A stretch of DNA of 64,000 nucleotides from Candidatus Aenigmatarchaeota archaeon (GCA_043824495.1 JBDRSV010000010.1:32001-96000), one strand, 5' to 3'; shown: positions 24,533 through 60,600, counted from the first letter of the stretch. The notes: generated by a model from the sequence alone, not told the origin. Program-made: numbers and translations.

Positions 24533-25567
24533 ATGTATGAAGATAAGCCAATAATCAAGAATTCAGAAGTCTTTACAGACGAATTTCTCCCAAACACAAT
24601 TAACCATAGAGATGGGCAAATGAAAGCAGTGAGAGATGATCTAAATCCACTTCTAAATAATAAACCAGGAAGAAGCGTGTTCATTTTCGGTGCTCCAGGG
24701 ACAGGAAAGACTTCAACATCTAAATACATAATAAATGAGCTAGCTTCACAGTCTGTTTTTACAAGTTACATAAATTGTTGGAATACGAGTTCAAGATTCA
24801 AAATATTATACACAATTCTTCAGAATTTTGGAGAATCTCTGTCTATACACACAAAAGGAACTCCAACGCATGATCTTTTAGAATTACTTAAGAAAAAAGT
24901 CCAAGAAAAACAAGCAGTGATAATCTTAGATGAAGTGGATCAATTAGAAGATGATAAAATTTTGTATGATTTAATTATGATAGCAAATGTTAGTGTAATT
25001 CTAATAGCTAATTCAGAAACAGCATTACATGACAATGATCCTAGAATAAGAAGTAGATTAGCGTCTGCAGATACAATAGAATTTCCTAAATACAAGTCAG
25101 ATGAAATAACAGAGATACTCAAAGAAAGAGCAGAACTAGGTCTAGTTCCTGGTGTTGTGAAAAATGCACAACTAGAGAAAATAGCAGAGAGATCTTTAGG
25201 TGATTCTAGAATTGCAATTAATATTCTTAAAATAGCTTCGGAAGAAGCTGAGAAAAAAGATGAAGGAAAAATAACCGATGATGACGTAGAGAAAGCTTCT
25301 CCAAAAGCGATAGAACAAGGAAAGAAAAAGAGTATAGAAACATTGAATGATCACCAGAAATTGATATACTCTGTAATTAGTATGGGTGTCAAAACAGAAC
25401 CTTCTGAACTATACACAAAATATCAAGAAGAGTGTAAAAGAAAAGATATAGAACCTGTGAAAGACAGAACAATCAGAAAATATTTAGACAAAATGATACA
25501 ATATAAGTTAATTCTAGCTGAAGGCGAAGCTCGTTGGAGAACTTATTCTATCCAGAAAGCGCAATAA
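24533..25567 (+). CDS. cdc6: Orc1/Cdc6 AAA+ replication initiator
   Basis: GAPGTGKT, ILDEVD, GDSR.AI, C-terminal WH domain. Confidence 0.93.
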   Translation: MYEDKPIIKNSEVFTDEFLPNTINHRDGQMKAVRDDLNPLLNNKPGRSVFIFGAPGTGKTSTSKYIINELASQSVFTSYINCWNTSSRFKILYTILQNFGESLSIHTKGTPTHDLLELLKKKVQEKQAVIILDEVDQLEDDKILYDLIMIANVSVILIANSETALHDNDPRIRSRLASADTIEFPKYKSDEITEILKERAELGLVPGVVKNAQLEKIAERSLGDSRIAINILKIASEEAEKKDEGKITDDDVEKASPKAIEQGKKKSIETLNDHQKLIYSVISMGVKTEPSELYTKYQEECKRKDIEPVKDRTIRKYLDKMIQYKLILAEGEARWRTYSIQKAQ

Positions 25568-25607: not shown

Positions 25608-25640
25608 TTATTGGCATACTGGCATACTGGCACGGTCCTA
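25608..25640 (+). repeat. Dispersed motif copy 2 with tandem TGGCATAC units
   Basis: TTATTGGCATACTGGCATACTGGCACGGTCCTA; partial copy TTATTGGCAC at 25572-25581. Confidence 0.75.
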
Positions 25641-25658
25641 GGATCCAGTTTATATCTG

Positions 25659-26423
25659 ATGAAAATCTACTCTAAAGTGATCCCTATGCGTCTAGTACCC
25701 CAACTCTTAGATAAAATCGAACCCTTCGTTGATGAATTTAGGCAGTGGCCTAAAGGAGACATTCCTTCTTCCAAAGAAGGTAAGTGGCTTCAAGTTCAAA
25801 TGTCTCAATTCACACCACCTTTTGTCATTGAGAAGAATTATGAAAATAGTTTCATATCTTCTTCACATGTGGTAGATACAGAATTACTTGATGCTACCTT
25901 GAAGAGAAAAACAAATCTTCTCTCCAAGCAAGAAATAAGAATACTTATTGGTTCAACAAAAAACTTGAAACATAAAATATTATTACAACTATTGTATGGT
26001 TGTGGTCTTCAGATATTCGAAGCTATTGAGCTAAAGATAGATGACATCAACCTGAAAGAGTGTAGAGTCAACGTAGGAACGAGAACAGTTCCTTTATCAA
26101 CAAAAATGGTTCCACAACTGGAATTCTTGTTTAGATACACACAAAAACCAGATAATAATCACCTGTTTCCCAACTGGAACGGAGGTCACGTAACACCAGA
26201 AGATGCAGAACAGATCGTGAAATATGCATTCGCTGCTGCTGGGTTGAGACCAGTTTCCCCACACGCTCTTAGACACAGCTTTGCTTCACACCTCCTCGAA
26301 TACGGCGTCAGAATAGGAATAATACAAACACTTCTAGGAAATTATGATGCAACAAAAATGAGACACATGAAAATTTCAGAAGAAATGATCAAGAACGTGA
26401 AGAGTCCTCTGGATAAACTTTAA
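25659..26423 (+). CDS. Tyrosine recombinase-like protein lacking catalytic residues
   Basis: YGCGLQ (R to Q), HALRH kept, LLGN (H to N), no Tyr in TKMRHM, ends KSPLD. Confidence 0.8.
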   Translation: MKIYSKVIPMRLVPQLLDKIEPFVDEFRQWPKGDIPSSKEGKWLQVQMSQFTPPFVIEKNYENSFISSSHVVDTELLDATLKRKTNLLSKQEIRILIGSTKNLKHKILLQLLYGCGLQIFEAIELKIDDINLKECRVNVGTRTVPLSTKMVPQLEFLFRYTQKPDNNHLFPNWNGGHVTPEDAEQIVKYAFAAAGLRPVSPHALRHSFASHLLEYGVRIGIIQTLLGNYDATKMRHMKISEEMIKNVKSPLDKL

Positions 26424-26430
26424 TTTTCAT

Positions 26431-26649
26431 ATGAGTCACAAAATCATAAGATATAGCAAACATACCATTAGAAGAAAATTAGAAAGAAACATTTCAGAAG
26501 AAGAGATAGAAGAAACAATCAGAAACCCTAATTATGTTTTATCTTCATTTGAAGAAAGAAAAATAGCTGTTAAACAAATAGCAGAAAGAACTATTCATGT
26601 AATCTACAATGAGGAAAAAACCCATATAAATATAATAACCGTATATTAA
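26431..26649 (+). CDS. DUF4258-like putative toxin
   Basis: YSKH..RR..ERNI...IITVY pattern; paired with the next gene. Confidence 0.7.
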   Translation: MSHKIIRYSKHTIRRKLERNISEEEIEETIRNPNYVLSSFEERKIAVKQIAERTIHVIYNEEKTHINIITVY

Positions 26650-26656
26650 ATGTAAT

Positions 26657-26863
26657 ATGAAAATGACATATGACAAAGAGGTGGATGCAGCATACATTTA
26701 CCTAAAAGACACAATAAAAAAAGGCGAAGTAAAAAGCACACAAACCATGAACGAAAACATCATCCTAGACTTCGACAAAGATAAAAAACTCATCGGAATC
26801 GAAATTCTTTCTGCAAGTAAAGTAATACCCAAAAAGTCAGTAAAAGCACTACAAACAGCCTAG
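26657..26863 (+). CDS. DUF2283-like putative antitoxin
   Basis: YDKEVDAAYIYL...DFDKD.KLIGIEIL.AS. Confidence 0.8.
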   Translation: MKMTYDKEVDAAYIYLKDTIKKGEVKSTQTMNENIILDFDKDKKLIGIEILSASKVIPKKSVKALQTA

Positions 26864-26883: not shown

Positions 26884-27720
26884 ATGAAAGAACTCTTAAT
26901 ACGCTTGGAAAATGAACTAAAATCTCGCGGCTTCAGCAGAAAGACCGTAAAATCCTATTTATTTCACGTTTCAACTTTCTTGCGTCACATATCAACAGAT
27001 TCCACACAAGAAGAGATACAAAGATATTTCATACAATTAGCAGAAAACGCAGATCCCAGAACAGTTAATCTGCGCATAAGCGCAGTTAAATTCTTTTACA
27101 AGAACATCCTACACAGAAACCTCTACATAAACTACATGAAGAGACCCAGAAAAATACCTGAAGTTTTAACTGTACAAGAAGTCATGTATATGATATCGTC
27201 CACGACTAACCCAAAACACAGAACTATAATTGAAATGTTATACGGCTGTGGACTCCGGGTATCAGAAATAACTAAAATAAAAAAATCTGACATAAACATT
27301 CCAGAAAGAATAATATTCATAAGACAAGGAAAGGGAATGAAAGACAGAATTGTTCCTCTTCCTCTTACACTAAAAGAGATTGTATATAATTTCAGTGTAG
27401 ACGACTGTCCATATGTTTTCCAATCAGAAAGAGGAGGAAAGCTAACGGAAAAAACAATACAGGTGATAGTGAAAAATGCAGCCAAGAAAGCCGAAATAAA
27501 AAAGCGCGTATCTCCACATACTCTCCGTCACAGCTATGCAACCCATCTCCTCGAATCAGGAACAGATATTCGTATAATTCAACGTCTTCTAGGTCATTCC
27601 TCGGTCAAAACCACAGAACTCTATACTCATGTTTCAAGAGCTCTTCTGAAAAACATAAAAAGTCCTCTAGACTTCGTAAAAACATTCAATATAGAACATT
27701 CTAATCCAAACAATGCGTAG
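26884..27720 (+). CDS. Tyrosine recombinase (Xer/integron-integrase-like) with N-terminal SAM-like domain; no IntI-specific insertion
   Basis: YGCGLR, GKGMKDR, HTLRH, LLGH, TELYTH all intact. Confidence 0.92.
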   Translation: MKELLIRLENELKSRGFSRKTVKSYLFHVSTFLRHISTDSTQEEIQRYFIQLAENADPRTVNLRISAVKFFYKNILHRNLYINYMKRPRKIPEVLTVQEVMYMISSTTNPKHRTIIEMLYGCGLRVSEITKIKKSDINIPERIIFIRQGKGMKDRIVPLPLTLKEIVYNFSVDDCPYVFQSERGGKLTEKTIQVIVKNAAKKAEIKKRVSPHTLRHSYATHLLESGTDIRIIQRLLGHSSVKTTELYTHVSRALLKNIKSPLDFVKTFNIEHSNPNNA

Positions 27721-27736
27721 AAACACTAGTTATAAG
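27713..27736 (+). other. attI-like site at the recombinase 3' end (GTTATAAG core 27729-27736)
   Basis: GTTRRRY-type core followed by the same leader as the cassette starting at 31578. Confidence 0.45.
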
Positions 27737-27792
27737 AAATCGTTGGTCTTGATTGGTTAAAGGAGATCGCCGCCATTTGGCTTCGCCAAAGA
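27729..27792 (+). repeat. Cassette leader repeat, copy 1 (10-nt insertion relative to copy 2)
   Basis: gttataagaaatcgttgg[tcttgattgg]ttaaaggagatcgccgccatttggcttcgccaaaga. Confidence 0.85.
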
Positions 27793-27923
27793 TAGCCTGC
27801 CTTCGGCAGTATATAGAAAGGGTATTCTTTGTTTTCGAGGACATAGGGAAGTAGTACTCATAAATGGGCATAATAAAGATTAAAAATAACACAACACCTA
27901 TATACTACTAAGGGATTGATAAT

Positions 27924-28845
27924 ATGAATCAAATAGAAATTAATAGAGAAAATCTTGAAAAGAGACTTAAGCAAGTAGGGCTTAGTTCAGATATATACAG
28001 CGTCAAACCAAAAAAATTTATTAGAATTAATACGAGACATCCAGTGAAAATAAGAGAATTACAGGAAAGACTTAATAGAAATTATGGAATCGAAGTAGAA
28101 TTTATAGAAACATGTATTGAGGAAATTTATGAATCAACAAACTCGGATATTGGAGGGTGGATTAGTGGTAAAAAGAACGAATTCTTTAATAAAAATTATT
28201 TTATTCAAGATTTAGCAAGCGTTATTTGTGTTAAAGAACTTGATTTAAAAGAGGGTCAATCTCTTCTTGAAACATGTGCAGCGAGAGGTTTCAAGTCTAT
28301 TCTGGCTCATGATTTAACACATGGAAAATTAAGAATAACAGCATTAGATATAGATCCTAAAAAAATATCAAATAATGATGGGATTCTTTAAAAAATTTGG
28401 AATAAATGCAGAAACCCGATTAATGGATTCCACAAAATTTCAAGGTCAAAAATACGATAGAGTACTGGTTGATGCTCCTTGTTCTGGTGAAGGTGTGACT
28501 GTGGTGTATGATGAGAAATTGAGAAGAGATGTTAGTGGATTTGATAATGTTGTGCAATATTCACAAGAAGATGTTGAAAGATTTTCAGAATTACAAGGAA
28601 AACTTTTACAAAGCGGTTTTGACCACTTAAAGAAGAGTGGAATCCTAAATTACGCCACCTGTACCTTGAATAAGATTGAAAATGAAAGCGTAATCCACGA
28701 ATTTCTTCAAAGAAACGGCGATGCTTCAGTTGTTAACTCTAATATTGATAAATATGGTATCAAGCACAAGGTTTCTAATCTAGGGGTAAGAATCTTGCCT
28801 GGAAAAACTAAGGGCTTTTACTTTACAAAAATTATAAGGAGATAA
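27924..28845 (+). pseudogene. RsmB/NOP2-family RNA m5C methyltransferase split by a +1 frameshift in an A7 run (28359-28365)
   Basis: ORF1 has IQDLAS and CAARGFKS; ORF2 has VDAPCSG and YATCTL. An A6 run would give DPKKYQIMMGFF in one frame. Confidence 0.8.
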
Positions 28846-28877
28846 TCTTCAAAAGAAGACAAAGAATCTATCACCGA

Positions 28878-29210
28878 TTACCTTGTCCTAAAACCAAACC
28901 TTTTTTCATAATTCTTGTGGTCTAGCCATTCTAGAATAATTGCGATGACTTCAATCTTGTCCCTTCCAAGAGAGTATAATAATCTCCACCCATTTGGTAA
29001 ATCATACTTCCAGAGATTGTCTATTCCATATTTCTTGATATATTCCTTTGGAATCAGTTTTTGTTTTATATGAATGAAAGCATTCGGATTCTTCTCAATT
29101 TCCTTAAAGGCGTTGCTTATACTATCATATAACCATTTCTCTCCAGGAGAATCCTTAAGATTGTCATACGCCTTCTTCACATTTTCGTCTGCGAAAACTA
29201 ATCGTGTCAT
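28878..29210 (-). CDS. RelE-like toxin
   Basis: LWKYDLPNGWRLLYS pattern; coupled to the upstream small gene. Confidence 0.65.
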   Translation of the reverse strand: MTRLVFADENVKKAYDNLKDSPGEKWLYDSISNAFKEIEKNPNAFIHIKQKLIPKEYIKKYGIDNLWKYDLPNGWRLLYSLGRDKIEVIAIILEWLDHKNYEKRFGFRTR

Positions 29211-29485
29211 TTAATCAACAGATGTGGTTTACTCATGTACTTCTTTACAAGTTCTGGATTCCAAATCCAAACTACATGTCCTTCTTTGTCTGTGACAATC
29301 TTACCTGAATCCATAAGGTAATCGAAAACTACACAGAATGTTTGGTACATCATTTTCTTTGGGAGATGTTCCCAAAGCTGCCTTTTCTTGTACTCTCCAC
29401 TGTTATTTTTGATAAACTTCTCTACCATAAGTACAGTATCCAACTGTGGATAATGCAAAATTCCTTTCTCCATTAATTGTGGCAT
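29207..29485 (-). CDS. Putative antitoxin/wHTH protein
   Basis: 92 aa, 4-nt overlap with the toxin, helix-turn-helix-like spacing. Confidence 0.55.
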   Translation of the reverse strand: MPQLMEKGILHYPQLDTVLMVEKFIKNNSGEYKKRQLWEHLPKKMMYQTFCVVFDYLMDSGKIVTDKEGHVVWIWNPELVKKYMSKPHLLIK

Positions 29486-29578
29486 AAAATCACCTTGTTA
29501 TATATATTTATATAACAAGTATTTATAAAGGTTTCGGTTGAGCCTAAAACATATCATAAGACAAAGAATCTCGTCCGC

Positions 29579-29740
29579 GGCGGCGATCTCCTTTATTAGT
29601 TATGTGCACAACGACTCTGCGGCTGCTTCGCAGCCTTGCCTCGCATGGCGAAACCATTTCAGAATAGGAGAAATCCATGCTCGGTCTTATAACAAGCAGC
29701 TTGGCGGTTCGCTGCTGCTCTCCCAAATTCGATCTTTGCT
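29579..29740. repeat. Degenerate attC-like/hairpin cluster
   Basis: Inverted copy of TAAAGGAGATCGCCGCC (29579-29595), GTTATGTG (29599), CTTATAAC (29686-29693, complement of 27729), GGCTGC-TTC-GCAGCC hairpin. Confidence 0.5.
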
Positions 29741-29795
29741 ATGAAGGCGGTCTCTTAAAACTAAAACATTTATAAACTGGATACAAATTATTGTT

Positions 29796-29993
29796 ATGAG
29801 CGAATTGAAGATGCATGGAAAACACCAAACTCAATGGGTTACTATATCCCTTGATGAATATGAGAGCATGAAGGCTACTCTCGAGATTTTATCTAGCCCT
29901 AAGGCGATGGAGAAAATTAGACGCGGTGAACAGGAAAGACTAGCTGGAAAGGGGCAGAAACTAGAAGATGTGAAGAAAGAACTTGGAATTTAG
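29796..29993 (+). CDS. Phd/YefM-like antitoxin
   Basis: ISLDEYESMKATLEILSSP...LEDVKKELGI. Confidence 0.75.
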   Translation: MSELKMHGKHQTQWVTISLDEYESMKATLEILSSPKAMEKIRRGEQERLAGKGQKLEDVKKELGI

Positions 29994-30244
29994 AAATCAT
30001 CTTTATGTAATATAGTATCTATTTGAACTAATTTCTCTTTTTCAATGATTACGTAGATGATTCTCCATCGCTTTTCAAATCTTAATTCCCACTTTCCCAC
30101 CAGAGGCCATCTTAGTGGCTTACCATAAATATCTGGATATTCCTTTAACTTTTCAATTTTCTTGAAAAATCGTCTTTGCATTTCTGCATCAAATTTCTTC
30201 AGATCCTTCTTGGCCTCTGGCATTATCTCGATATCATAACTCAT
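29990..30244 (-). CDS. RelE/ParE family toxin
   Basis: AKKDLKK...GKPL..PL.G.W.LRF...WRIIY. Confidence 0.85.
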   Translation of the reverse strand: MSYDIEIMPEAKKDLKKFDAEMQRRFFKKIEKLKEYPDIYGKPLRWPLVGKWELRFEKRWRIIYVIIEKEKLVQIDTILHKDDF

Positions 30245-30262
30245 GAAATATAATTAAATTCT

Positions 30263-30323
30263 ATACTAATAAATCGGCCGCCCTTTAAAAGACCGGACTT
30301 TGCCAACCTGCTGATGTTAAATA
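30263..30323 (+). repeat. Degenerate attC-like site ending in R' GTTAAATA (30316-30323)
   Basis: R' is the exact complement of R'' at 30981-30988; the upstream boxes are degenerate. Confidence 0.5.
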
Positions 30324-30328
30324 ACATA

Positions 30329-30883
30329 TTACTCGGCAGACCGCATTTTGAATTCAGAATCTAAAATACTCATTATCAAATCATTGTAAAACTTCCCATC
30401 TATATAGGCGTTGTCTCTGAGAATCCCATCCACCTTGAAGCCGCATTTTTTATAAGCGGCAATTGCTCTTTTATTGAAATCTAAGACAACTAAGCTGATT
30501 TTATGGAGTTTTAATTGTATAAATCCGAATTTTAGAATGCAATTAATTGCATCGGTTCCATATCCCTTTCCGAAATAGTCTTGAAGAATTCCTATTGCTA
30601 ATCTGACATTTTTATCTTGTTTATTGATTTGATGGAGACGACAACTTCCAATATATTTGTTATCTGATTTTTTGATGATAGCAAATGACAATTCCGATTT
30701 CTGAGCAATTGCCTCTTTGAATCTTTCTTTTACTTTATTTAGTGGGGTAGGTTTCCATTTCTTTGAGCCTCCACACATTATAGTGAATTCTTTGCTTTCT
30801 CTTGTCTTTGCAAAATCTTTGAAATCGGATTCATGTAACTGTCTGATATAAACATTATCCCCATTAATTTTTGGAAGTTTCAT
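30329..30883 (-). CDS. GNAT (RimJ/RimL-like) N-acetyltransferase, cassette gene in reverse orientation
   Basis: GKGYGT, LHKI.L.V...N..AI..YKKCGF..DG. Confidence 0.85.
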   Translation of the reverse strand: MKLPKINGDNVYIRQLHESDFKDFAKTRESKEFTIMCGGSKKWKPTPLNKVKERFKEAIAQKSELSFAIIKKSDNKYIGSCRLHQINKQDKNVRLAIGILQDYFGKGYGTDAINCILKFGFIQLKLHKISLVVLDFNKRAIAAYKKCGFKVDGILRDNAYIDGKFYNDLIMSILDSEFKMRSAE

Positions 30884-30980
30884 GTATTTTAGTGGATTTT
30901 AGAGGTTATATGATTAACGGTCTGCCTCCGTCATACGCTTCGTCGCTTCGCTCCTCGGTCTCAAACCAAGGTTTTCGACT

Positions 30981-31065
30981 TATTTAACAGAAGTTTAAAG
31001 GTTCCGCTACGCTGCACCCACATTTTTTCTAAAAGAAAAACGTCTTATAACCCTAACGTTAAGTG
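30981..31065 (+). repeat. attC-like site
   Basis: R'' TATTTAAC, 4-nt spacer, L'' GTTTAAAG, loop with TTTTTCT-AA-AAGAAAAA hairpin, L' CTTATAAC, 6-nt spacer, R' GTTAAGTG. Confidence 0.8.
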
Positions 31066-31087
31066 AAATTGCTACGAGCAAATTTAA

Positions 31088-31522
31088 ATGTCTATTCTCT
31101 TTACATTAATTATGGTTGATTTTATCAGAAAGAAATCCGAAAAGCCCACATTTTCACAGAAAGGGCTTGATGGATATCAATTTCTTTTAGAAAACAAGAA
31201 TGTAGAAGTATATTTCGTGGACGTGAAAATGGGGCATGATAATTACATTATTAGTAAAAAAATTACTCACATCTATTTTGTTATAGAAGGCGAAGGATTT
31301 TTCGATATAAGCGGAACTAAATTTGATGTTAAACTTGGAGATTTCATAGAAGTTCCGCCAAATAAGGAATATTGTTATTCAGGAAAAATGAAATTGTTAC
31401 TTATCATGAACCCGCCGTGGTTTGAAGGAAACGAAGAGATTACTAAGAAAAATCTTCTGTTGAATAGTTTGCCCTCCGCAACTCTCCCTTCGGTCGTCAC
31501 GGATCACTTAACAAAAGATTAA
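31088..31522 (+). CDS. Cupin domain protein (cassette gene)
   Basis: H.YFVIEGEG...GD.IEVPP...Y; the ORF reads into the attC-like site. Confidence 0.75.
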   Translation: MSILFTLIMVDFIRKKSEKPTFSQKGLDGYQFLLENKNVEVYFVDVKMGHDNYIISKKITHIYFVIEGEGFFDISGTKFDVKLGDFIEVPPNKEYCYSGKMKLLLIMNPPWFEGNEEITKKNLLLNSLPSATLPSVVTDHLTKD

Positions 31523-31585
31523 GACACTCACTACGTTCGTCCTAATTTCCTAAAGGAAACTAGTCTTAACCTCGAATGTTATAAG
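31505..31585 (+). repeat. attC-like site
   Basis: R'' CACTTAAC (complement of 31058-31065), L'' GATTAAGAC with one extrahelical base versus L' GTCTTAAC, TTTCCT-AA-AGGAAA hairpin, R' GTTATAAG. Confidence 0.85.
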
Positions 31586-31631
31586 AAATCGTTGGTTAAA
31601 GGAGATCGCCGCCATTTGGCTTCGCCAAAGA
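31578..31631 (+). repeat. Cassette leader repeat, copy 2 (54 nt)
   Basis: Identical to 27729-27792 apart from the 10-nt indel. Confidence 0.85.
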
Positions 31632-31669
31632 GGTTTAATATAAATATGAATTAAAACAAAGTTTAATTT

Positions 31670-32977
31670 ATGAGTTGGAAATACAAAGTGCTTCAGCATA
31701 AGAATTTACTCTCCGTTCTTATGATAGTAGCGGTTGTTGTGATCAGTGGATGTACAACTCAACTCGAACCTACACCAACACCAGAACCAATTCCTACTCC
31801 AGAACCGGCACCTGAACCAGAAATTATAAATCAAAAACAAGTTACTTTAGCAAATGGAGTTATTGAAGCAAATAGCCTATTTGCATCAGATATTTATGAT
31901 AAATACAAATCAGAAGATGGAAATCTATTTTTCTCACCTTATAGTATTTCATCTGCACTGTCAATGACTTATGAGGGAGCAAAAGGACAAACAGCAGAAG
32001 AAATACAGGCGGTCTTACATTTGCCTGATGATAAAAACAAAATACGTACTGATTTTAAGAGTATTAACAATGAACTTAATAAAGCAGACAAAACCTATAA
32101 ACTAACTACCGCAAATGCTTTATGGGCTGAAGAAGACTATGTTTTTGTTGATGAATATTTTAATGTTGTTGATGAATATTATGATGGAGAGGTAAATAAT
32201 CTTGATTTTAAAACAGAAACAGAAAATTCTCGTGTTGCAATTAATGACTGGGTTGAGGATAAAACTAATGATAAGATAAAAGACCTTATTCCAGCAGGAA
32301 CGCTTAATAGTGCTACAAGATTAGTTCTAATAAATGCCATCTACTTTAAAGCTAATTGGTCAAGTCAATTTGATGCAAGAGATACTTGGGACGGAAAATT
32401 TAAATTGAGCTCCGATCAAAGTGTTGATGCTAGAATGATGTATCAAACTAGCAATTATAGCTATGGTGAAACAGATAACCTTCAAATATTGGAAATGGGT
32501 TATCTTGGAAATGATCTTTCGATGTTAATAATTCTCCCAAAAGAAAATAATATAACTCAAATAGAAAATAATTTTAGTATAGAAAAACTTGAAGACTGGA
32601 AGAATGATATGCAAACCGAAAAAGTAAGAGTTGCATTACCAAAATTTAAGTTTGAAACAAAATATTTTTTAACTGAATATTTAAAAGAAATGGGAATGCC
32701 TTCTGCTTTCAAATATCCTGATGCTGATTTTACTGGAATGAGTCCTACTGATGAATTATTTATTAGTCAGGTGATACACCAAACTTTTATAGAAGTTGCT
32801 GAATATGGGACTGAGGCAGCTGCTGCAACATCAGTATTTGTGGGAGCTGGAAGCGCTGGTCCAACAGAAGAACCCAAGTATTTCACAGCAGACCATCCAT
32901 TTATATTTATAATCCAGCAGAAGGATTCCGGGAATATTTTATTCATGGGAAGAATGAGTGATCCAACTCAAGAATAA
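31670..32977 (+). CDS. Serpin with lipoprotein-type signal and Pro-rich linker
   Basis: VVISGC, PEP repeats, FFSPYSIS, hinge EYGTEAAAAT, F.ADHPFIFII...ILFMGR. Confidence 0.93.
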   Translation: MSWKYKVLQHKNLLSVLMIVAVVVISGCTTQLEPTPTPEPIPTPEPAPEPEIINQKQVTLANGVIEANSLFASDIYDKYKSEDGNLFFSPYSISSALSMTYEGAKGQTAEEIQAVLHLPDDKNKIRTDFKSINNELNKADKTYKLTTANALWAEEDYVFVDEYFNVVDEYYDGEVNNLDFKTETENSRVAINDWVEDKTNDKIKDLIPAGTLNSATRLVLINAIYFKANWSSQFDARDTWDGKFKLSSDQSVDARMMYQTSNYSYGETDNLQILEMGYLGNDLSMLIILPKENNITQIENNFSIEKLEDWKNDMQTEKVRVALPKFKFETKYFLTEYLKEMGMPSAFKYPDADFTGMSPTDELFISQVIHQTFIEVAEYGTEAAAATSVFVGAGSAGPTEEPKYFTADHPFIFIIQQKDSGNILFMGRMSDPTQE

Positions 32978-36006: not shown

Positions 36007-37741
36007 TATTCATCTAGAAGTTCTCTTTCATCTGGTGTTAATTTACTTTCTATTTTCTTTAGTTTTTCTACATCTTCGTGAGAAAGGAAAACATTGAGAA
36101 CATCGCCTTCTATTATTTCTTTACCTATTGTAACTCCTTGCATAGAAACAGCTACTTTGTCTCCCATTTTTACTTTAGAGATATTATCTCCTCTAAGTTG
36201 AAGTTCTTTTATTTCGCCTACAATATCATTTCCTTTTTTGAGTCTATAGGCTGATTTTAGAGTTCCTTTCAAAACTTCAACACCGAAAATAGCGGGCTTG
36301 CTTGCCCTGAAAACATAACCAGGTAGAACTCTTACTCTTCCAGGCCTTGTTATACTTTCTAATATTCTAGCTTCTTTTCTGGCTCTTTCATCCTTTTTCC
36401 ACTTTTCATAATCTTCTACGAGCCTGTAAATGACATCGGAATGGAATACAGATATATTGTTGTCTTGGGCCATTTTCAAAATATTAGAATCAATTTTGAT
36501 ATTGAAACCAAAAATAACAGGATCTTTCAAAACTCTCATTTCCATTATATCAGATTTTGTGATGTTTCCTACAACAGCTTTTCTTATAGGGACATTTTTA
36601 TCTTTCAGTGTTTTAATCAAAGCCTCTAATCCTCCGAGTGTATCAGTTTTCAGAAGAGTTCCTTCATTCTGTGTTTCAATTTCAACCTCTTCGACTTCTG
36701 CCCTTAGTTCTTCAATAGCTTGGTCTATATCGGATTCGTTTGCAACAGCCCTCAAAGGTGAACCAGGTATAACGTCTTCTAAATCAGAAGCGGCTATTTT
36801 TATTCCAGCAGCAGCAGATACGGTATCGACATTAACAAAATTACTATTTTTTAATTCTTTCAAAATCTCAGGTTCTAATAAAGCCTTGACTTTGGTTTTT
36901 ATTATTTTGTTTCCACCAATAATTATACAGTCTCCTCTTTTGATATCTCCGTCATATAGGATAACATCTATTGTTGTTCCCAAACCACGAAAATTTTTTA
37001 CTTCAAGAACAGTTCCTTTACCTTCTCCATTAGTTAAGATAAGTCCTCTTTTTAGAAATTTCTGGGAAATACCACTTAGTGTCATAAGCAGTTCAGGAAG
37101 TCCTTCTCCGGTGTGAGCGCAAATTGGAACAACAGCTATTTGTTTTGAGAAATCTGATATCCTGTCTATTCTCTCAGCTTCAAATCCCCTAACACCCAAC
37201 TGTCCAATTATTTTATATATTTTTTCTTCTAGAGCATCTTGAACTCTTTCTGATTGACAATTGTAAGTAACAGTAAATGGCTTATCTTTTTGTGGCATCC
37301 AACCAGCAATTCTATCAAGTTTTGTGATGGCTACCATGAAAGGAGTTTTGAATTGTTTTAAGTAATTCAGACTCTCTTCAGTTTGTGGTTGAAATCCTTC
37401 CATCACATCAATAACAAGAATGGCCAAATCAGCAATAGCTCCGCCTCTTTTTCTAAGAGTTGTAAAAGCTTCATGTCCTGGTGTGTCAACAAACAATAAG
37501 CCAGGAATGGTTAACTTAATGTTCATCTTCTCCAACAAATTACCAGCAATTTTTTTAATTAGTTCTGTAGGAACTTTAGTTGCTCCTATTGTTTGTGTGA
37601 TGGCTCCTGCCTCCCCTTTTACTACAGAGGTTCCCCTAATTTTATCCAGTAAACTGGTTTTACCGTGATCTACGTTTTCGGTTGAGATAATACTCAATGT
37701 CCGACTACGACCACGATAGGTGATCTGAGTTTTTCAATCAT
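36000..37741 (-). CDS. infB: Translation initiation factor aIF5B/IF2, interrupted by a 23-nt BHB intron (37676-37698)
   Basis: Exon 1 MIEKLRSPIVVVVGH plus exon 2 gives GHVDHGKT after splicing. DTPGHEAF, TKLD and other motifs are present. Confidence 0.93.
37676..37698 (-). other. Archaeal BHB intron in infB pre-mRNA
   Basis: Helix TCGG/CCGA, bulges ACA and AAA, intron stem TTGAG/CTCAA. The unspliced frame hits TGA. Confidence 0.88.
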
Positions 37742-39084
37742 ACTCGTTTTAGACTTTTATAAAAATCAAGTTCCTCCTTTCCTTTATTTGTAAACGAATA
37801 AATTTTTTGTCTATAGTGGTTTTTATCAATTTTAGCTTTTAAATAGTTCTCTTCTTCGAGTCTCGTTAAGAACATTCTTGTGGTTATTTGGGAAAGCCTT
37901 AAAAATTTTGCAGATCCTAAACTTGTATTAAATCCGTTGTTAACAGAATCTAAATATTTGTAAAGATAAACTTTCTTATTATTAAAAATGTTTCTTACTA
38001 ATTTATTTTTCCTTTTCTGATGAGTTATGCAACCTAATTTAAGTAATTTTATAAAATTACTTCTATTTGTTATTCTCACTGACCAATATCCCTTTTTACC
38101 CGTAATATAGTACATTTTACTTGTTCTTATTCCTATAATTTTGCATATATTCTTGAAGAATAATGCATTCTCTCTACTTTCTGTAGAAAAATTTACTTCT
38201 TTATGAGAAACACCAATATCACCTCTTGACAATCCTCTGAAGGTCTCTATTGAAAATTGTTTTGAACTAAGTGTCAAGTTCATACAATATTCCATAATGT
38301 AATAGAAAACCTCAGCCAACGTAGAGTTATGGATATTAAGAATACACACACCGTGTGATGCAGATACTCTAGAGTTCTTAATTATTTTTATATTGTCTTT
38401 TAATAGTCCAAACTCTGACCAATATTCTTCAAGATTTCGAATCGTATTTTGATCTTTTTCAGGAAATAGTATTTGCACTTTCCATAAATCCTTTTTTATA
38501 CCTAAAATAGATTCAGCGGCTTTGACGAACCAAGCTATCTGAGATCCATCTGCATTAGAAAATGAAAATCTATCTAAATGCTTCCCTTTTTTTCTACTCT
38601 TAAAGCCTTCACAAAAATAAGCTCCAAAGAGCTCCAGTAAGCTATAATTCCCTTTTCTAATAGGTATGAGTTTTGGCAATTCAAATGCATTATTCCCCTT
38701 AGAGTAAATCCATAAAAGAAGTCTATTGTTTTCTAATTCAAATTTATGAAGAGGGTATCCTCTGATTGTTTCTCTTGGTATTATATTGAGTAGATTTGCA
38801 TAACCCTCTTTTTTTACGCTGTTTCTCTCTTTTGGAATACTTATTATATTAAAATAGATATTTTGTGGTGTCTTAATATTATTTGCAAGATGAATAGGCA
38901 CTGTAAATCTCACATCTTTTGTTGTTTTTAGCACAGCGGGAAATGTGGCATCTTTAATTTTTATTAGGGCTGGTTGAACATCATTTAATTTAAACTGTCC
39001 TATTGAAGATTTTTTAGTTACAATAATGTAGCTAGATTGATTATGTCTGCCTTTGCTCTGTTCATAAATTCTTCCCTTTAACAT
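37738..39084 (-). CDS. Free-standing LAGLIDADG-like endonuclease with C-terminal wHTH
   Basis: LLELFGAYFCEG...FSFSNAD and TFRGLSRGDIGV helices; its stop overlaps the infB ATG. Confidence 0.65.
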   Translation of the reverse strand: MLKGRIYEQSKGRHNQSSYIIVTKKSSIGQFKLNDVQPALIKIKDATFPAVLKTTKDVRFTVPIHLANNIKTPQNIYFNIISIPKERNSVKKEGYANLLNIIPRETIRGYPLHKFELENNRLLLWIYSKGNNAFELPKLIPIRKGNYSLLELFGAYFCEGFKSRKKGKHLDRFSFSNADGSQIAWFVKAAESILGIKKDLWKVQILFPEKDQNTIRNLEEYWSEFGLLKDNIKIIKNSRVSASHGVCILNIHNSTLAEVFYYIMEYCMNLTLSSKQFSIETFRGLSRGDIGVSHKEVNFSTESRENALFFKNICKIIGIRTSKMYYITGKKGYWSVRITNRSNFIKLLKLGCITHQKRKNKLVRNIFNNKKVYLYKYLDSVNNGFNTSLGSAKFLRLSQITTRMFLTRLEEENYLKAKIDKNHYRQKIYSFTNKGKEELDFYKSLKRV

Positions 39085-40478: not shown

Positions 40479-40797
40479 ATAATTTCTTTTTGAATTAAAT
40501 ACAATGGATACTTCAACTTTTATTTCCTTTGGAACCCCAGAGAGAGATAATTTCTTCTACTAACCCACATAGCCAGAGCGTTCCTGATTCTTTGTATAAT
40601 CCGTCACTCTTTATAGTCCTGGCCAGAACCGGCTCCGTAACAGAACACACAGCCGGAGAACCCTGAACTATACGCCTGTTCATAGACGAAGCCATATAAA
40701 ATATGTGCTGATGACATGAAATTCAGCAGTGACAGCTAGTAAGCAGAGAAGAAAACTGAAACTGTGGTGAAATCTTGAGTGAACAAGCTACTGAACA

Positions 40798-40969: not shown

Positions 40970-42051
40970 ATGAAAACTCATGGCAAACTATACAATAATA
41001 TACACTCAATAGAGAACTCTATCTGGCATATAGGAAGGCCAGAAAAGGCAAAAGGAATCGACATTATGTAAAAGAATTTGAATATGATCTACAGAACAAT
41101 ATACTAAGCTTACAAAAAGAACTAACAGAGCTCACATATGGGCCTAATCCCCTGAAAATCTTTGTGATAAGGGATCCAAAAACCCGTGTAATTTCCGCAT
41201 CTGATTTTAGAGATAGAGTTGTGCATCATGCACTATTCAACATCATTGAGCCGATATTTGAAAAAACATTTATCCATGACTCGTATGCAAGCAGGAAGAA
41301 CAAGGGGACCCATAAAGCTATAGAAAGGTTTGACGAGTTCAAGAGAAAGACAGCAAGAAACGGAAAACTTATAAAAAATGCAAAAACAAACAACATAGTC
41401 ATTGGCTATGTATTAAAAGCAGACATAAAGCACTATTTTGATTCAGTTGATCATGAAGTAATGATTAATATAATTAAAAAGAAAATCAGTGATAAGCACG
41501 TATTATGGTTAGTAAAGAAGATTCTGGACAACCATAACACCAAGATGCCATGCAAAGGAATGCCTATTGGAAACCTCACGAGCCAGACATTTGCAAACGT
41601 ATATTTGAATAGCCTTGATTATTTTGTGAAACAAAAACTAAGGGCAAGATATTACATCAGATATCTTGATGACTTTGTCATATTTGACAGAAGCAAAGAG
41701 AAGCTGGAAAAATATAAAAATCAGATAAGCGAGTTTCTCAAAACAATAAAACTGGAGCTTCATCCCAATAAATCCAAGATAATACCCCTGCATAAGGGCA
41801 TTAATTTTCTCGGCTTCAGAATTTTCTACTATCATAAACTTCTCAAGAAGAGTAATATCAGACTGTTCAGGAAAAGAACAATTGAATTAGAAAAGTCTTA
41901 TATATGTGGGGAAACATCCAAAGACAAGTTATGCGAAAAGATCAACGGCTGGCTGGAATATGCAAGGCATGGAGACACATATAAACTGAGGAAACGAATT
42001 CAAGATGAGATTTCTCATTTCTTAATGATTATAAAGAAAAAACCTCAATAA
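40970..42051 (+). pseudogene. DGR reverse transcriptase with a 1-nt deletion/frameshift near codon 16-17
   Basis: MKTHGKLYNNIHSIEN in one frame, LYLAYRKARKGK... in the -1 frame. GMPIGNLTSQ and RYLDD motifs are intact. Confidence 0.8.
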
Positions 42052-54514: not shown

Positions 54515-54695
54515 TTAACTCATAAGTAGAATCAATCATATGACTTATCAGTTATAAAGTCTAATTATAAATTATTCTTTATAAGTCTTTAGTGGAATAT
54601 TCTTTATAAATCTTTCTTAAATGTGTTTTTAAATACCTGCGAGCCATAGAGACCAGGTGCATATTTTAGTTTGTACTATTAATATAATAAATACT

Positions 54696-57600
54696 ATGAA
54701 ATATGCCATTTTAGTAGGTATTATACTAACCTTGGTAATTTATGCAATCTCTCCTATAACCATCAATAGTCAAGCTTGTTCTGATGGTCAAATTAAGCCT
54801 TGTGGAAGTAATATAGGTGCTTGTTCTTCTGGTTTCCAGACATGTAGCGCCGGCATATGGGGCACATGCGATGGTGGTATAGGTCCAGGAGCAGAAGTAT
54901 GTGATGGTCTGGATAACAACTGTGATGGTAAGATAGATGAGAAATTCGATAGAGACGGAGATGGTTATACATCGTGTAGTCAGCCGCAGGATTGTGATAA
55001 TGTAAATCCTAAAATAAATCCAGAAGCAAAAGAAACATGCGACGGGGTAGATAACAACTGTAATGGTCTTGTAGATGAAGAATGTCCTTGTGTAGCTGGA
55101 GAAACAAGAGCATGTGGATCTAACATAGGTGCATGTCAATCTGGAGTAAGAATATGTTCAGATGGTCAATGGGGAGCATGCGAGGGTAACATTAAACCAC
55201 AAGAAGAAGCATGTAATAGTATAGATGATGACTGCGACGCAGAAACAGATGAAGATGGTGTATGCATTGCATTGGAATGTCAAGACGGAGAAACAAGATC
55301 ATGTGGATCCAACATAGGAATATGTAAAGCTGGGATAAGAACCTGTGTATCAGGAAGCTGGTCTGATTGTACTGAAGACATAAAGCCTCAAGAAGAGATA
55401 TGTGATAACCTGGATAATGATTGTGATAGTATTGTAGATGAAGGCTGCAAGCAGCCTTCTCAACCAACGAAACCAACAACGCCAACAAAACCAGCTGCAG
55501 ACACGGAAAAAGTTCATCAAGTGGTTTTGGATGAAATATCATCAAAAGCAGAATCCCGGGTGATTGTTAAATTCAAGGAGACACCAAAAAGCCTGAACAT
55601 AAAACAAACAGATTTCAAAAACATAAGAACAGTAGACAAATACCAGTCAGGTGTAGTAAACAAAAATGGCCTGGATTCATTGCTGATAGACCCTGATATA
55701 GCTGAAATACTCCCAGATCAGGAAGTTAATCTTCTACTAACAGAGTCTATACCATTGATACACGCAGACCTGCAAAACTATAATCTCGGTCTTACAGGAT
55801 CAGGTCAGACTGTATGCATTCTGGATACAGGTGTTGATTATAATATAATCACAAATTACAAGAGCGGTTACGATTTCATAAACAATGACGATGATCCAAT
55901 GGATGATCACGGACATGGAACACAAGTTGCATATATAATTCAATCAGTAGCTCCTGGCTCTGAGATAATCGCAGCCAAGGTGATAGACAGCTCAGGAAAT
56001 GGATACGAAAGCGATGTACTACAAGGTCTGCAATACTGCATAGACCAGGGAGCAGACATAATAAGCTTCAGTATAGGATCAGGAGAATACAGCGGCTTAT
56101 GTGATGCAAATCCTGTCGCAGAACTTGTAAACGATGCTGTCAGCCAGGAAATATTCGTAGTAGCTGCAACTGGAAATGATGGCTCAATCAACTTTAAGGC
56201 TCCATCATGCGCTTCTAAAGTTTTGAGTGTTGGTTCAACGAATAAACAAAACATAATTTCTTCATTTTCAAATGTGAGAGAAGATTTGGGAGTGTTTGCT
56301 CCTGGTGTTGATATTGTGACAAAAACAATTGGAGGGGATGATATTAGTTTGTCTGGAACTTCTGCTTCGGTGCCTTTTGTTAGTGGGGCTGCTGCTCTTG
56401 TTTTAGAGAATGAGACTTTAGCCCCTTTGGATTTGAGATATAGGTTTGCAAGTACTGGTTTGCCTATATTGTATAATGAAATTAATATCTCAAGGCTTGA
56501 TGTTTATAATGCAGTGCTTAATATTTCTACAATGATTCCTTATGGGGGGGAGTTGAATCAGAGTAATATTATAGAGGTTAATGAGACGAATTTTACAACT
56601 TTGGCTGTGCCGGTCGTATCTTTAATTCTTCCCGCAGATGAAACTTATTATGGTTCTGCTCTACAGGATGTGCCTTTTCAATGTTATGTTACTGACACTG
56701 CTGAGGGAGGCGTCCCTGCCGGGATAAATCAAATTTCTCTTTATACAAGTTTTGATGGAGGCGCATATTCTCTTAAAGATACAATTATATTGGCTCCATT
56801 GTTGAGTGATTTACCAAATTATGTTAATAATTCTGACGGGACATTTACTACAAATTACCAACCTCCCAATGGAACTTCGGAGAAAGACACTTTTCTTTAT
56901 TGGGCAGGTACCTATGATTTTAGTTCTTCCGATTCTCTTTATGTTGCTGGCGGACAGGCTAAATGGATCTCCCAACCTCTTTTGGAATTTGATTTGAGCG
57001 GCTTTCCTCAGGGAATGGTTGTCCAAAACGCCAACTTGAGAATGGTCAAAAAAAGCGGAACTACTTCGTTTGGTACTCAGATTCGTAGAATTTCAGACTC
57101 CTGGATCAATGGGAATCTTACACAACCATATCCAAGAGATAGTGGTTCTGATTATGCCAGTGGGACGATACCACTTTCAGGAGGAGATGTGGTAATTTAT
57201 GATGTAACTGAATTGGTTCAGGAATGGATTGATGGAACTTATCCTAACTATGGCTTGAAGATCGTGTATACTTATTATACAGGAGTGAGTGCTTATTTAT
57301 ATTCTGCTGAGGAAAGCATTGCAAATCGGAGGCCAAAACTTGAAATTACTTATGATGTTGACCCAACATATACTGCAGATTTTCAACTAGATAATGTTGT
57401 AACAGGGAGCTACAAGTGGTATTGCAGTGCAAAAGATATTGCTGGAGGAAACAGCAATTCGGTTACTCCCTTTGATTTTTATGTTGGGAAATGTGAAAAA
57501 GGAACTGATTGTCCGAGTGGGTTGTGTGTGAATGATAGTCTTGGGGTTGGAAGGTGTGGGGACTCTTGTGATATTTATGACGGGTATGGTTGTAGTGATG

Positions 57601-60600
57601 ATGCAATTCTTCTTTCTAGTGGACTTGGAACATGTAGTAATGATGGGTGTAGGGATATTCCTTTTGTTAGCATGGATTGTGGAACTGGGGATGCTTGTGT
57701 GAAGGGAACAGATACAGCAACTTCTGTTCCTACTACTGGATCTTGTTATGGTAATCCTCAAATAGGTGATTCTTGTGATTCAATTGTTGGAGGAGATTTT
57801 TCCCAAGATGGAATTGTCGCATACGGCTTATCTAATAATCTTTGTTCTTGCGAAACTGAATCAATAAGTAATTGTGTTTATTCTACTGGTTCGTCTGTAA
57901 TACCAGTTGCATCTTGTAATTATGTTGGGGCACCTGAAGGTAGTGTTTGTAATGAACCCCCTTATGTTGGAGATTTTTATTTTGCCTCTACAAAAAAATT
58001 AGATTCTGATGGAACGAAACATTGTGTTGATTGTGGGACTGGAGTAATAGATGATGATGGGTCTGGAACTTGTGAAAGAGCTTGTGATCTTACTATAAGT
58101 AACACCTATTGTGATGAGAAAAATCCTGGTTATAAGTATTGTTCTATTAATAATATTATAGAATCAGAATGTGGTGAGGCTAATTTTTGTACTTATTTAA
58201 CTTCTGGGGGAAGTATTGGTCAGTGTTCATCTGTGCCGCCTCCAAATAGTGATGGTGATTGTAATGCTAATTCAAATTGTGATGGTAAAGAGCCTGGGGG
58301 TTGGTGGTGTAGTCTAGATAGTAAAGTGACTGTAGCGTGTACCTCTGCTTGTCAGGTGGTGGATGCTGATGATATTGGAGAGTGTGAGTCTAATAATTCT
58401 TATAATACTTTTTGTAATGCTGCTCCTGAGTGTGATGAGTTAATTTCTGGAGGTTATTGGTGTGATGCAAATAATTTAATAAGTTCTGGATGTGGATCTA
58501 GTTGTGGGTATACAACTACTGGTACTCCTGGTTCTGGTCTTTGTGAATCTACAAATTCCTATAATACTTGTGCTGCCGATCCCTTATGTGATGGGAATGT
58601 TCCTGGAGAAATAAATAATTGTGGAAACGATCCATTTTTAGATAAATGTTCAAGCACTTGTTTAGCAGAAGATAGGGGGGATAACATTTGTACTTCCAAT
58701 GCCGGGTGGAGTTGTACTGCAGATGCTGGTTGTAATTTAGAATCTCCAGATGCTTGTCCTGATATTGATACTTATTGTACAGACATTTGTGGATATGAAG
58801 ACAGAGATGATTCTCTAACGGCTTGTACTGCTACAGGGGTAGGGTGTGTTGCTGGTTATTCTTGGGAAGTTGGAACTCCTACTAGTCAGTGTTGTGGAGA
58901 TGATGGAATCTCTGATGATTGGGATGCTGATAATTTTACAGGAATTACCAATGCTTGCTATAATGGGAATTTGATTTTTCCAGGCACTCCTGTTGGGACT
59001 TTGTTAGTTGATGATTATGGAAAACTTTATGATTGTGGTGATCAGGTTCCTTTCCTTGAGGATCAAGGGGTTGCAGAAAGTATTGTAATTGATTGTGAAG
59101 GGTATGATAGTGGGGGTAGTACTTTTTATTGTGATACTGATACTTTTGAATGGATTGTGGGCAAATTACCAAGAACTTGTATTTGTACTAATGGGAATCA
59201 GTGTAAATCTACTTATTGTGTTGATAATAATAATAATGGTGTGAATGCAACTTGTCAAAATAGTTGTAATGGTGGTTTTGATGGTTATATGTGTTCTAAT
59301 GATACAAATGATTTTAATACGGTTGGGGGTGGGGTTTGTGCTGTGAATGGTGGTTGGATTTGTGATAAGGGGGAGGTTGCTTTGGGCACAACTGATTATA
59401 AACAAGATTGTTTTTATGCTTTGGGTGGAGATCCAACTTTAACAACACAGTGTGATAGGAATGTTTCAGATACGGGGGAGACTTTGGGTTATGTTGCTGA
59501 GAGTATATGCACTTATTCTACTGGAACACCAGCAGCAAATAATATGGATTGCGATTTAGATAATGAGGTTTGTAGAGATTCTTCAAATAGATACAGAGCT
59601 GATTGTAGTAATTGTGGTAGTACCCTAGAGAATGATTGTGATACTGATGGAGGAACAAGTTATAGTGCTAATGGTGTTTGTGTTTTGGATTCAAATAATT
59701 GTGATTCTTATGAGGTTTGTTTTGATGATTCGTATTATAGAGATGATTGTAATAAGTGTTCTGTTTTAGCAAGTGATGTTGATTCTTGTGATTATGGCTC
59801 TATTAGTGGAGGAAATTATGTTGCTGATGGGTATTGTGTTGCAGGAGGAGGGTGTGCTACGGGAATTGTTCGCGCCTATGGAAATCCTCTAACTCTTGGT
59901 TGGGGTTGTACTGATGGTGGTGGTGAGCAGTGCGATTCGGATGCTAATGGTAATGAAAATAGTAATGATTGGGTCACTAATTCTGCTGAAGGACTTTGTG
60001 TTTATACAGGTCTTGGAGTAGAATTTGGGGATTGTGAGATTGGGGATGTTTGTTTTGATGGGGCGGTTTATCGTGGGGATCTTGTTAATAATTGTGAAGA
60101 TGGTTGGGGCTGTGAGTTTAGGAATTTAGAGAGTACTATTTATTCCAGGGAAGGATATGTTTGTAATTCTGAAAGCTTAGGTTGTGTTGTTGACGGGTCA
60201 AGGACAGAAGCTCAGAGATGTTGCCAGAATGACAATTGTGCTGGTGGTGTTCCTAGCTGTGTTGATAGTGGAATTGTTGATGAAATTTATTACAAAGGAT
60301 GCTGCGCCTTGACAACAGATTGTTCAGGACCAACTCAATGCTATTCTGATACAGAGATTTACTATGGTACTTTGAATAATTATTACTGTTATGTAGGGGC
60401 TTGGATAAATAAAACACAATATAATACCTGCACTCCATCGGGAAGTTTTGTTGATTTAGTTATTGACCAACCAGGGATAATATGTAGCGGAGTAATAATA
60501 GACATTGCTTCTTTAACTGTAAAAAATGAAGGGGAATTAACTTTATTAGACGAATCAGAATTAATCGTAGGAAATGTGACAATCGAGGAAGGTGGGAGTT

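Follow-up and report, generated by a model that had tools for sequence, protein, structure and literature searches.

Introduction

What defines an integron integrase (IntI), for practical purposes as well as for software, is an extra domain that is held to be necessary for recombination at folded attC sites. In Archaea, both integrons and clusters of attC sites lacking an integrase (CALINs) have been reported, some of them in Nanoarchaeota; an IntI enzyme with the IntI domain was present in six cases only, for 75 archaeal genomes with cassette arrays, and the archaeal cargo is rich in toxin-antitoxin and acetyltransferase genes (Ghaly 2022, PMC9668308). An Xer-type integrase for archaeal cassette arrays is not described in the literature searched in full text. 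The archaeal Xer recombinase XerA acts on a single dif site with an 11-6-11 layout (review PMC8371274). The locus described here lies in the 64,000-nt stretch G000:C10:32001-96000 (the window), in which the gene for a 278-aa Xer-family tyrosine recombinase without the IntI-specific insertion (26884-27720, plus strand) is followed on the same strand by an array of cassettes with attC-like sites.

The genome to which the window belongs amounts to 1.01 Mb in 29 contigs, with about 35% GC, and the stretch is recovered from one sequencing run only, a groundwater metagenome, with next to none of it in run X2. The named relatives of the recombinase found in the homologue search are metagenome-assembled genomes (MAGs) of Nanoarchaeota and Pacearchaeota, and the host is presumably a small groundwater archaeon of the DPANN type. 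The array spans 27729-31586 and comprises four cassettes with two intact and two decayed sites. Judged from its sequence and from comparison with the 91 genomes of the order, it is probably a short, partly decayed integron-type array, for which the adjacent Xer-like recombinase is the most likely cassette integrase. The wider proposition, that integron-type arrays throughout this DPANN order are worked by an Xer-type integrase lacking the IntI domain, is favoured with somewhat less assurance.

The likeness to integrons covers the whole organisation of the locus. A tyrosine recombinase gene adjoins the insertion point, the cassettes are promoter-poor and mostly carry one gene each, the sites have an R''-L''...L'-R' architecture with conserved AAC/GTT and at least two of them (A and B, scored on the models R1 and R2 described below) lie within 4 kb, crossover falls at G|TT with each cassette start complementing its own R'', and the cargo is rich in toxin-antitoxin and acetyltransferase genes, as in Ghaly et al. 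(PMC9668308). The locus differs from integrons in that its recombinase has no IntI domain around patch III, by which Ghaly et al. and IntegronFinder define IntI, in that R' seems to be a longer box of some 12 nt (GTTAnnnGMAAT), and in that the gene in the window is co-oriented with the array and abuts it.

In the mechanism proposed, each cassette would open with the distal part of R' (G|TTA...) and close with a complementary R'', having entered individually through site-specific recombination, with the G|TT of a folded R''-L''...L'-R' site as the crossover point. The 278-aa enzyme, a member of the NF040815 family, would catalyse this reaction, its substrate would be a folded single strand, and the locus may still be active. 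The platform appears to have been rearranged here, with the array directly against the 3' end of the gene and without the canonical left part of attI (attI-left).

Cassette boundaries and the complementarity rule

In integrons, crossover occurs between the G and the TT of R', so that the remainder of R' joins the next cassette and should complement the R'' of that cassette. An earlier note on this DNA, made from the sequence alone, had claimed that the opening core of each cassette is the exact complement of its closing R'' box. All of the motifs it quoted are in place, and every pair can be lengthened without mismatch to an inverted 9-mer that is specific to its module, the two members lying 0.45-2 kb apart: GTTATAAGA at 27729 complements 29685 and has 27 copies in 1.01 Mb (both strands), four of them within 27.7-31.6 kb; GTTAAATAA at 30316 complements 30980 (14 copies genome-wide); and GTTAAGTGA at 31058 complements 31504 (7 copies genome-wide). 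An extra inverted 9-mer pair with 3 copies genome-wide lies within the GNAT module (30335/30918). The array-start junction (27721-27737, plus strand, from reading the sequence) consists of an 8-nt gap after the recombinase stop codon (27718-27720), as the earlier note had it, followed on the same strand by an R'-type core at 27729. This first core fits the R' consensus of the relatives, GTTAnnnGMAAT, a motif with five hits in the genome, four of them at junctions.

The strongest sign of individually inserted units is the complementarity between one site and the next. Across the arrays of the order, the R' 9-mer of a site matches the R'' of the next site at 9/9 positions in 12 of 21 adjacent pairs; against the R'' of its own site the mean is 6.2/9, four of those positions being the invariant TAAC/GTTA. 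The pairs that fail are mostly several kb apart, and an intervening site has probably been missed in them. In the window the rule holds at 9/9 from site A to site B, and also for the starts of cassettes 1 and 3.

A different origin of the 9-mers, either as chance matches in AT-rich DNA or as the ends of invertible or pdif-type modules, is scarcely credible. By a rough estimate, inverted 8-mer matches within 3 kb are common by chance in DNA of 35% GC, and the sites are unremarkable in a naive hairpin scan; the 9-mers, however, are rare genome-wide and paired, and a model of the sites finds homologous arrays in other genomes. The rarity of the 9-mers together with the comparative data means that a chance origin of the inverted pairs is no longer a worry. 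The pdif modules of Acinetobacter plasmids are bounded by single 28-bp Xer sites in alternating orientation. They resemble the present modules in carrying accessory genes, including toxin-antitoxin genes, between inverted half-sites and in depending on Xer-type enzymes, but the junctions here are structured elements of 85-125 nt whose outer boxes lie 65-100 nt apart around a covarying interior, as against 6-8 nt at pdif. Shufflons and other invertible segments have a common border repeat, whereas each pair here is unique: every module has its own 9-mer, and only the GTTA core is common to all.

A family of attC-like sites

The cassettes of the window are separated by attC-like sites of 85-125 nt. 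Site A (30976-31070; R'' 30980-30988, R' 31058-31066) and site B, the last of the array (31500-31590; R'' 31504-31512, R' 31578-31586), are both on the plus strand and 524 nt apart. They align with a site on contig C4 of the same genome (29520-29612) as R''-spacer-L''...L'-spacer-R', a geometry that we take to be like that of the aadA1 attC; in site A the layout is R''-4-L''...L'-6-R'. The C4 site has no matching cassette start upstream and is thus a singleton.

A first covariance model (R1) was made from these three sites of the own genome, with a structure supplied by hand because RNAalifold gave no consensus for them. R1 has no further match in the own genome besides its three sites. Elsewhere in the order it does match sites, three of which are spaced about 550 nt apart in G029. 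A second model (R2) was made from A2, a 10-site alignment gathered with R1, in which 85.9% of cells are paired, compared with 32-44% with slid partners, and 17 of 21 pairs show compensatory changes; none of 500 shuffles equalled the pairing or compensation values, although A2 was fitted to the model and the pairing counts are somewhat inflated for this reason. Site A scores 80.8 bits with R1 and 67.6 bits with R2, and site B 100.7 and 90.6 bits; site B is the sole site that folds alone as an R/L-box hairpin. The two sites with a full R''-L''-loop-L'-R' layout that the earlier note had described are thus recovered by both models, and the TTT..AAA internal hairpin it had pointed out is helix 3 of the site family, kept through compensatory changes.

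In the 1.01-Mb own genome R2 finds three junction sites only, so it does not call sites densely elsewhere. Of the order's 91 genomes, 19 have R2 matches, among them co-oriented arrays of nine sites (G058:C9), five sites (G082:C65) and three sites (G029:C4). The remaining junctions of the window are degraded. The site closing cassette 1 (29681-29806, plus strand; R'' 29685-29693, R' 29792-29800) is the third-best R2 match in 13 kb, a weak one (15.3 bits, E 0.42) at the predicted place, and its R'' complements 27729-27737 at 9/9 positions. The junction before the GNAT cassette (30232-30324, plus strand, from reading the sequence) combines an R''-like box that agrees at 7/9 positions with an R' core at 30316 that is intact, and matches neither R1 nor R2.

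Rfam has nothing relevant at gathering or E-value thresholds, and the junction 18-mer (up to 1 mismatch) is absent from the other 90 genomes of the order. Near 40 recombinase loci R1 has no match, and only the broader R2 gives matches; R2 has no match at the 17 loci scanned from outside the order, some of them from candidate-phyla bacteria and Bacteroidota.

An Xer-type recombinase without the IntI insertion

The 278-aa recombinase matches the Phage_integrase and SAM-like N domains of Pfam, and its catalytic residues R125, K150, H212, R215, H238 and Y247 are all invariant in alignment A4. The best family is the XerA-type NF040815, whose cut-off is passed marginally (225.8 bits against 220). 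The integron integrase family TIGR02249 is matched at 208.6 bits, below its cut-off of 265, in two stretches around the insert, with model positions of about 181-236 never aligned; PRK15417 reaches 127.6 bits against a cut-off of 435. The closest solved structures are likewise XerA proteins (4A8E and 5HXY), followed by IntI4 (2A3V), which is matched in two stretches. The claim that the enzyme lacks the IntI insertion therefore holds, and the same is seen throughout the order: no protein of the 91 genomes exceeds the IntI cut-off, and the TIGR02249 matches in them cover only positions 1 to about 180 or about 237 to 315.

The family label alone does not settle what the enzyme does. Many bacterial homologues also have NF040815 as their best match, so the label is broad and the XerA name does not decide function. 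Ten bacterial homologues were scanned and none is above the IntI cut-off. Bacterial homologues whose best match is NF040815 and which align with the IntI model in part only, below its cut-off (L110, L114, L100, L121, L130 and L133), come from an uncultured unclassified bacterium, Spirochaetota, Firmicutes, a clostridial isolate, a betaproteobacterium and Acidobacteriota, and a similar insert-less recombinase family may exist in Bacteria. The homologue L101, from Gracilibacteria, has seven in-frame stops under table 11, possibly through an alternative code with TGA as a sense codon, which has been reported for Gracilibacteria.

Tyrosine recombinases that match over the catalytic domain only are found in many relatives as well (among them G009:C131, G031:C8, G024:C17 and G040:C2), and in the order they often stand in adjacent pairs. 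In the relatives they are mostly about 160-270 aa long; the one in the window has 270 aa. These proteins may be the real housekeeping Xer system.

Linkage of gene, insertion point and array in related genomes

Homologues of the recombinase in the order are 35-51% identical and very often lie at contig ends, because attC-like sites or arrays flank the gene, as R2 revealed. In G013, G033, G054, G055 and G011 an attC-like site found with R2 lies 0.5-0.8 kb upstream on the opposite strand, and in G058, G028, G073, G025 and G019 sites or whole arrays flank the recombinase gene; altogether, the linkage of recombinase and array recurs in at least 11 genomes.

Between gene and array lies a conserved attI-like region that ends in a GTTA core 85-90 nt upstream of the start codon. 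It is of two types, one of which is a covarying palindrome. The attI-like cores were fixed by position alone and then compared with the first attC-like site: the 9-mer of the core complements the R'' of the first cassette at 9/9 positions in five genomes and at 8/9 in G058. Contig C9 of G058 has a textbook integron layout, with a divergent 269-aa recombinase, the core and cassettes that obey the complementarity rule. Since the NF040815-like family adjoins an attI-like point and arrays in this order, it is the most likely cassette integrase.

The family appears to be patchily distributed. A protein query missed it in G010 and in two contiguous assemblies, G032 (1 contig) and G002 (6 contigs), within the limits set by MAG incompleteness; G056 has a partial match only, and G043 has two copies, beside each of which, at a contig end, lies a separate attI-like site. 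Such a distribution, together with the duplication in G043, is more in keeping with an accessory platform than with a universal Xer/dif pair. The earlier note had proposed an integron-like array driven by the adjacent recombinase: linkage, attI-like site and complementarity support an integron-type system with an Xer-type enzyme, and that this enzyme drives the array is what we infer from them. The same note had taken the absence of a divergent gene as a feature of the system, which is true of this locus, but the relatives show the canonical divergent layout.

Competing explanations and the state of the locus

The points that weigh against an active integron-type array with its own Xer-type integrase concern the folding of the sites, the identity of the enzyme and the condition of the locus. 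The folding of the four window sites as single-stranded DNA is weak (z -0.1 to -1.0), and a constrained scan of contig C10 for AAC..GTT hairpins did not place the window sites in the top 40; from these two results, naive folding is a poor detector here. The site family and its covariation, the complementarity rule, the missing IntI insertion and the recurrent linkage of gene, site and array are observed directly, and the integron-type reading is the one that this comparison supports. The analysis of the sequencing data covered the assembled contigs of one run, probably the source.

As regards the enzyme, it passes the XerA equivalog cut-off and may have a housekeeping role, and in the homologues of highest identity (about 50%) the genes downstream are housekeeping ones. 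The recombinase might be an ordinary XerA that resolves chromosome dimers and the conserved site its dif, in which case the cassettes would be small elements that make use of the host enzyme by means of a folded site resembling dif and accumulate there; this is rather unlikely. The window protein resembles XerA of P. abyssi (4A8E) and T. acidophilum (5HXY) in its best family and structure matches, its two domains and its size (about 270-280 aa), and its gene is the sole full-length XerA-like gene of its own genome. A recombinase gene beside its own site is also familiar from single-recombinase Xer systems such as XerS/difSL. Integrative mobile elements exploiting Xer (IMEX), such as the CTX phage of Vibrio, use the host Xer on a folded single strand, and the locus would be like them in the action of an Xer-type enzyme on a hairpin-forming site and in having elements in tandem at one chromosomal point. 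It is unlike them in that its cassettes carry single genes without replication or phage genes, in that its sites share the R'/R'' and L''/L' arrangement of attC, and in that no dif-like dyad was identified; no 11-6-11 dyad was recognised by eye at the junctions or the insertion point, where no dedicated search was made. The XerA/dif comparison is weakened further at the level of the order, where structured sites of 85-145 nt form arrays linked to the gene, the protein query misses the family in several contiguous assemblies, and the paralogues of G043 each have an attI-like site; the breadth of the NF040815 label, with its many bacterial best hits, also weakens the case for a resolvase.

The integron-type reading has further to account for the unusual layout of the locus. 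The recombinase points into the array on the same strand, which is atypical for the family, its start lies only 20 nt from the preceding gene, and no attI-left of either type is present anywhere in the own assembly. With two of the four junction sites degraded, one cargo gene split and another frameshifted, the locus may be a fossil. In the extreme, it would be an inactive relic, an integrase-less attC cluster that came to lie next to the recombinase gene by rearrangement and on which the enzyme no longer acts or never did. The atypical orientation, the missing attI-left, the decay of sites and cargo, the convergent toxin and antitoxin genes and the presence of only three sites of the family in the whole genome would all suit a relic, but the recombinase reading frame and its catalytic residues are intact, linkage recurs in about 11 genomes with exact complementarity of the first cassette, and a second contig of the same sample has both junctions around 752 unmatched nucleotides, all of which makes this explanation decidedly improbable.

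This second contig, of 5587 nt and with a depth of 27 (about 34 at the locus), matches 27689-27744 with 7 mismatches, continues with 752 nt that are unmatched, where the window has 3791 nt, then matches 31536-31593 and finally diverges. A related population in the metagenome has both junction sequences around a different intervening sequence. The same-strand arrangement is for this reason not an assembly artefact; since the family norm is the divergent layout, it is peculiar to this locus and one related contig and not a trait of the system.

The tandem-hairpin element

Cassette 1 begins with a 107-nt tandem-hairpin element (27729-27835, plus strand), defined by its repeat copies and homologues, whose first nucleotide is at the crossover point. 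A 96% identical copy follows the C4 site (C4:29600-29706), and a partial copy of 55 nt with a 10-nt deletion follows site B at the distal end of the array (31578-31631, plus strand), where it is detected as a direct repeat, by blastn and by the model R3 (59.1 bits). Homologues of the element are also present in G016, after the attI core, and in G058:C9, after an attC. Compensatory changes have preserved two short GC stems in them, both loops being TTC closed by C-G, and such hairpins are otherwise almost absent from the own genome. The element may be an undescribed accessory part of the platform at G|TT junctions; a leader or terminator, a protein-binding site and an ancestral right flank of attI are candidate functions. 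An interpretation of the 107-nt repeats as attL and attR of one integrated 3.85-kb element was rejected, the element starting at the crossover points of other genomes and having a third copy on C4.

A 169-nt segment of the window (29560-29728) forms its own assembly unit in the source run, with a depth of 59 compared with 34 locally. Two other flanks attach to it, and it is therefore present in another context in the sample. It carries an inverted and diverged copy of the left end of the hairpin element, together with the R'' of cassette 1.

Cassette contents and neighbouring genes

After the hairpin element, cassette 1 contains an RsmB/NOL1/NOP2-type methyltransferase gene (27924-28845, plus strand; NCBIfam and Pfam) that is split into two overlapping frames (27924-28391 and 28375-28845). 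Both frames hit the same NCBIfam and Pfam models, one over the N part and the other over the C part, and the gene is a probable pseudogene. It is followed on the minus strand by a two-gene pair called from open reading frames (ORFs), a RelE/ParE-like toxin (28878-29210) and a 92-aa upstream partner (29207-29485), which overlap by 4 nt. The pair has no Pfam match; its nearest Atlas clusters are RelE/ParE/YoeB (score 0.98, TM 0.97), which is a lead only. Cassette 2 (29796-30244; Pfam, NCBIfam and PHROG) carries a Phd-like ORF on the plus strand (29796-29993) and a RelE/ParE toxin ORF on the minus strand (29990-30244). The two are convergent and hence not an operon.

The cargo of cassette 3 is a GNAT acetyltransferase gene (30329-30883, minus strand; Pfam Acetyltransf_3, E 2.5e-20), inverted relative to the array, and that of cassette 4 is a cupin gene (31088-31522, plus strand; Pfam Cupin_2). 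The cupin homologues are 118 aa long and 72-79% identical and stop about 26 codons earlier; in the window, the deletion of 1 nt close to the 3' end carries the reading frame on into site B. Among the closest homologues are proteins of candidate-phyla bacteria (Woykebacteria) whose gene surroundings are ordinary and not those of a cassette, and R2 has no match near the three cupin homologues searched. These relationships hint at gene sharing across domains in groundwater.

Beyond the last attC-like site lies a serpin gene (31670-32977, plus strand; Pfam Serpin, E 1e-122). Downstream of site B there is no complement of the 31578 core and no further R2 match; in the absence of a closing site the serpin gene is flanking sequence and not demonstrated cargo. 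Thus the cargo listed in the earlier note stands for the GNAT, cupin and (split) methyltransferase genes, while the serpin gene falls outside the array and the Phd-like and ParE-like genes do not form the operon of a toxin-antitoxin pair.

The upstream context begins with an Orc1/Cdc6 gene (24533-25567, plus strand; Pfam), followed by the 270-aa second tyrosine recombinase (25611-26423, plus strand), which Pfam matches over the catalytic domain only, and by a DUF4258/DUF2283 pair (26431-26863; Pfam) between this gene and that of the 278-aa recombinase, the latter being assigned by Pfam, NCBIfam and structure matches. Downstream of the serpin gene are DUF1801, bPH_2, NUDIX and FAD genes and aIF5B. 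Adjoining aIF5B is a 448-aa ORF (37738-39084) with weak LAGLIDADG-like and PadR-like matches. An RT-16 RNA (Rfam RF03019, 66.6 bits) at 40610-40796 lies just 5' of an RVT_1 ORF (41164-42051), in a local GC peak (0.446) between an ORF of no assigned family and a seryl-tRNA synthetase gene; RNA and ORF look like a retron-like unit or a reverse transcriptase-associated non-coding RNA unit. At the far end of the window, an ORF of at least 3114 aa (54657-63998) with a strong positive GC skew extends past the last position.

Implications for archaeal integrons

The earlier note had expected such a system to be missed by screens for IntI. This is so for the integrase, but screens for attC would report the arrays, as integrase-less clusters, which is how Ghaly et al. 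(PMC9668308) reported those of this phylum. If the enzyme is the cassette integrase, many of the archaeal integrase-less attC clusters would be complete platforms, which would explain the scarcity of archaeal IntI, and archaeal surveys would need a second integrase model. The window itself adds a locus with an unusual orientation, and the comparison that it led to adds an in silico test, in which an attI 9-mer fixed by position matched the R'' of the first cassette. With this enzyme as the integrase, the IntI-specific domain would be dispensable for attC-type recombination. The ancestors of integrons may have had the Xer-like state seen in this system, or the system may be a convergent reinvention, and the long-assumed descent of IntI from Xer would become testable with a living intermediate.

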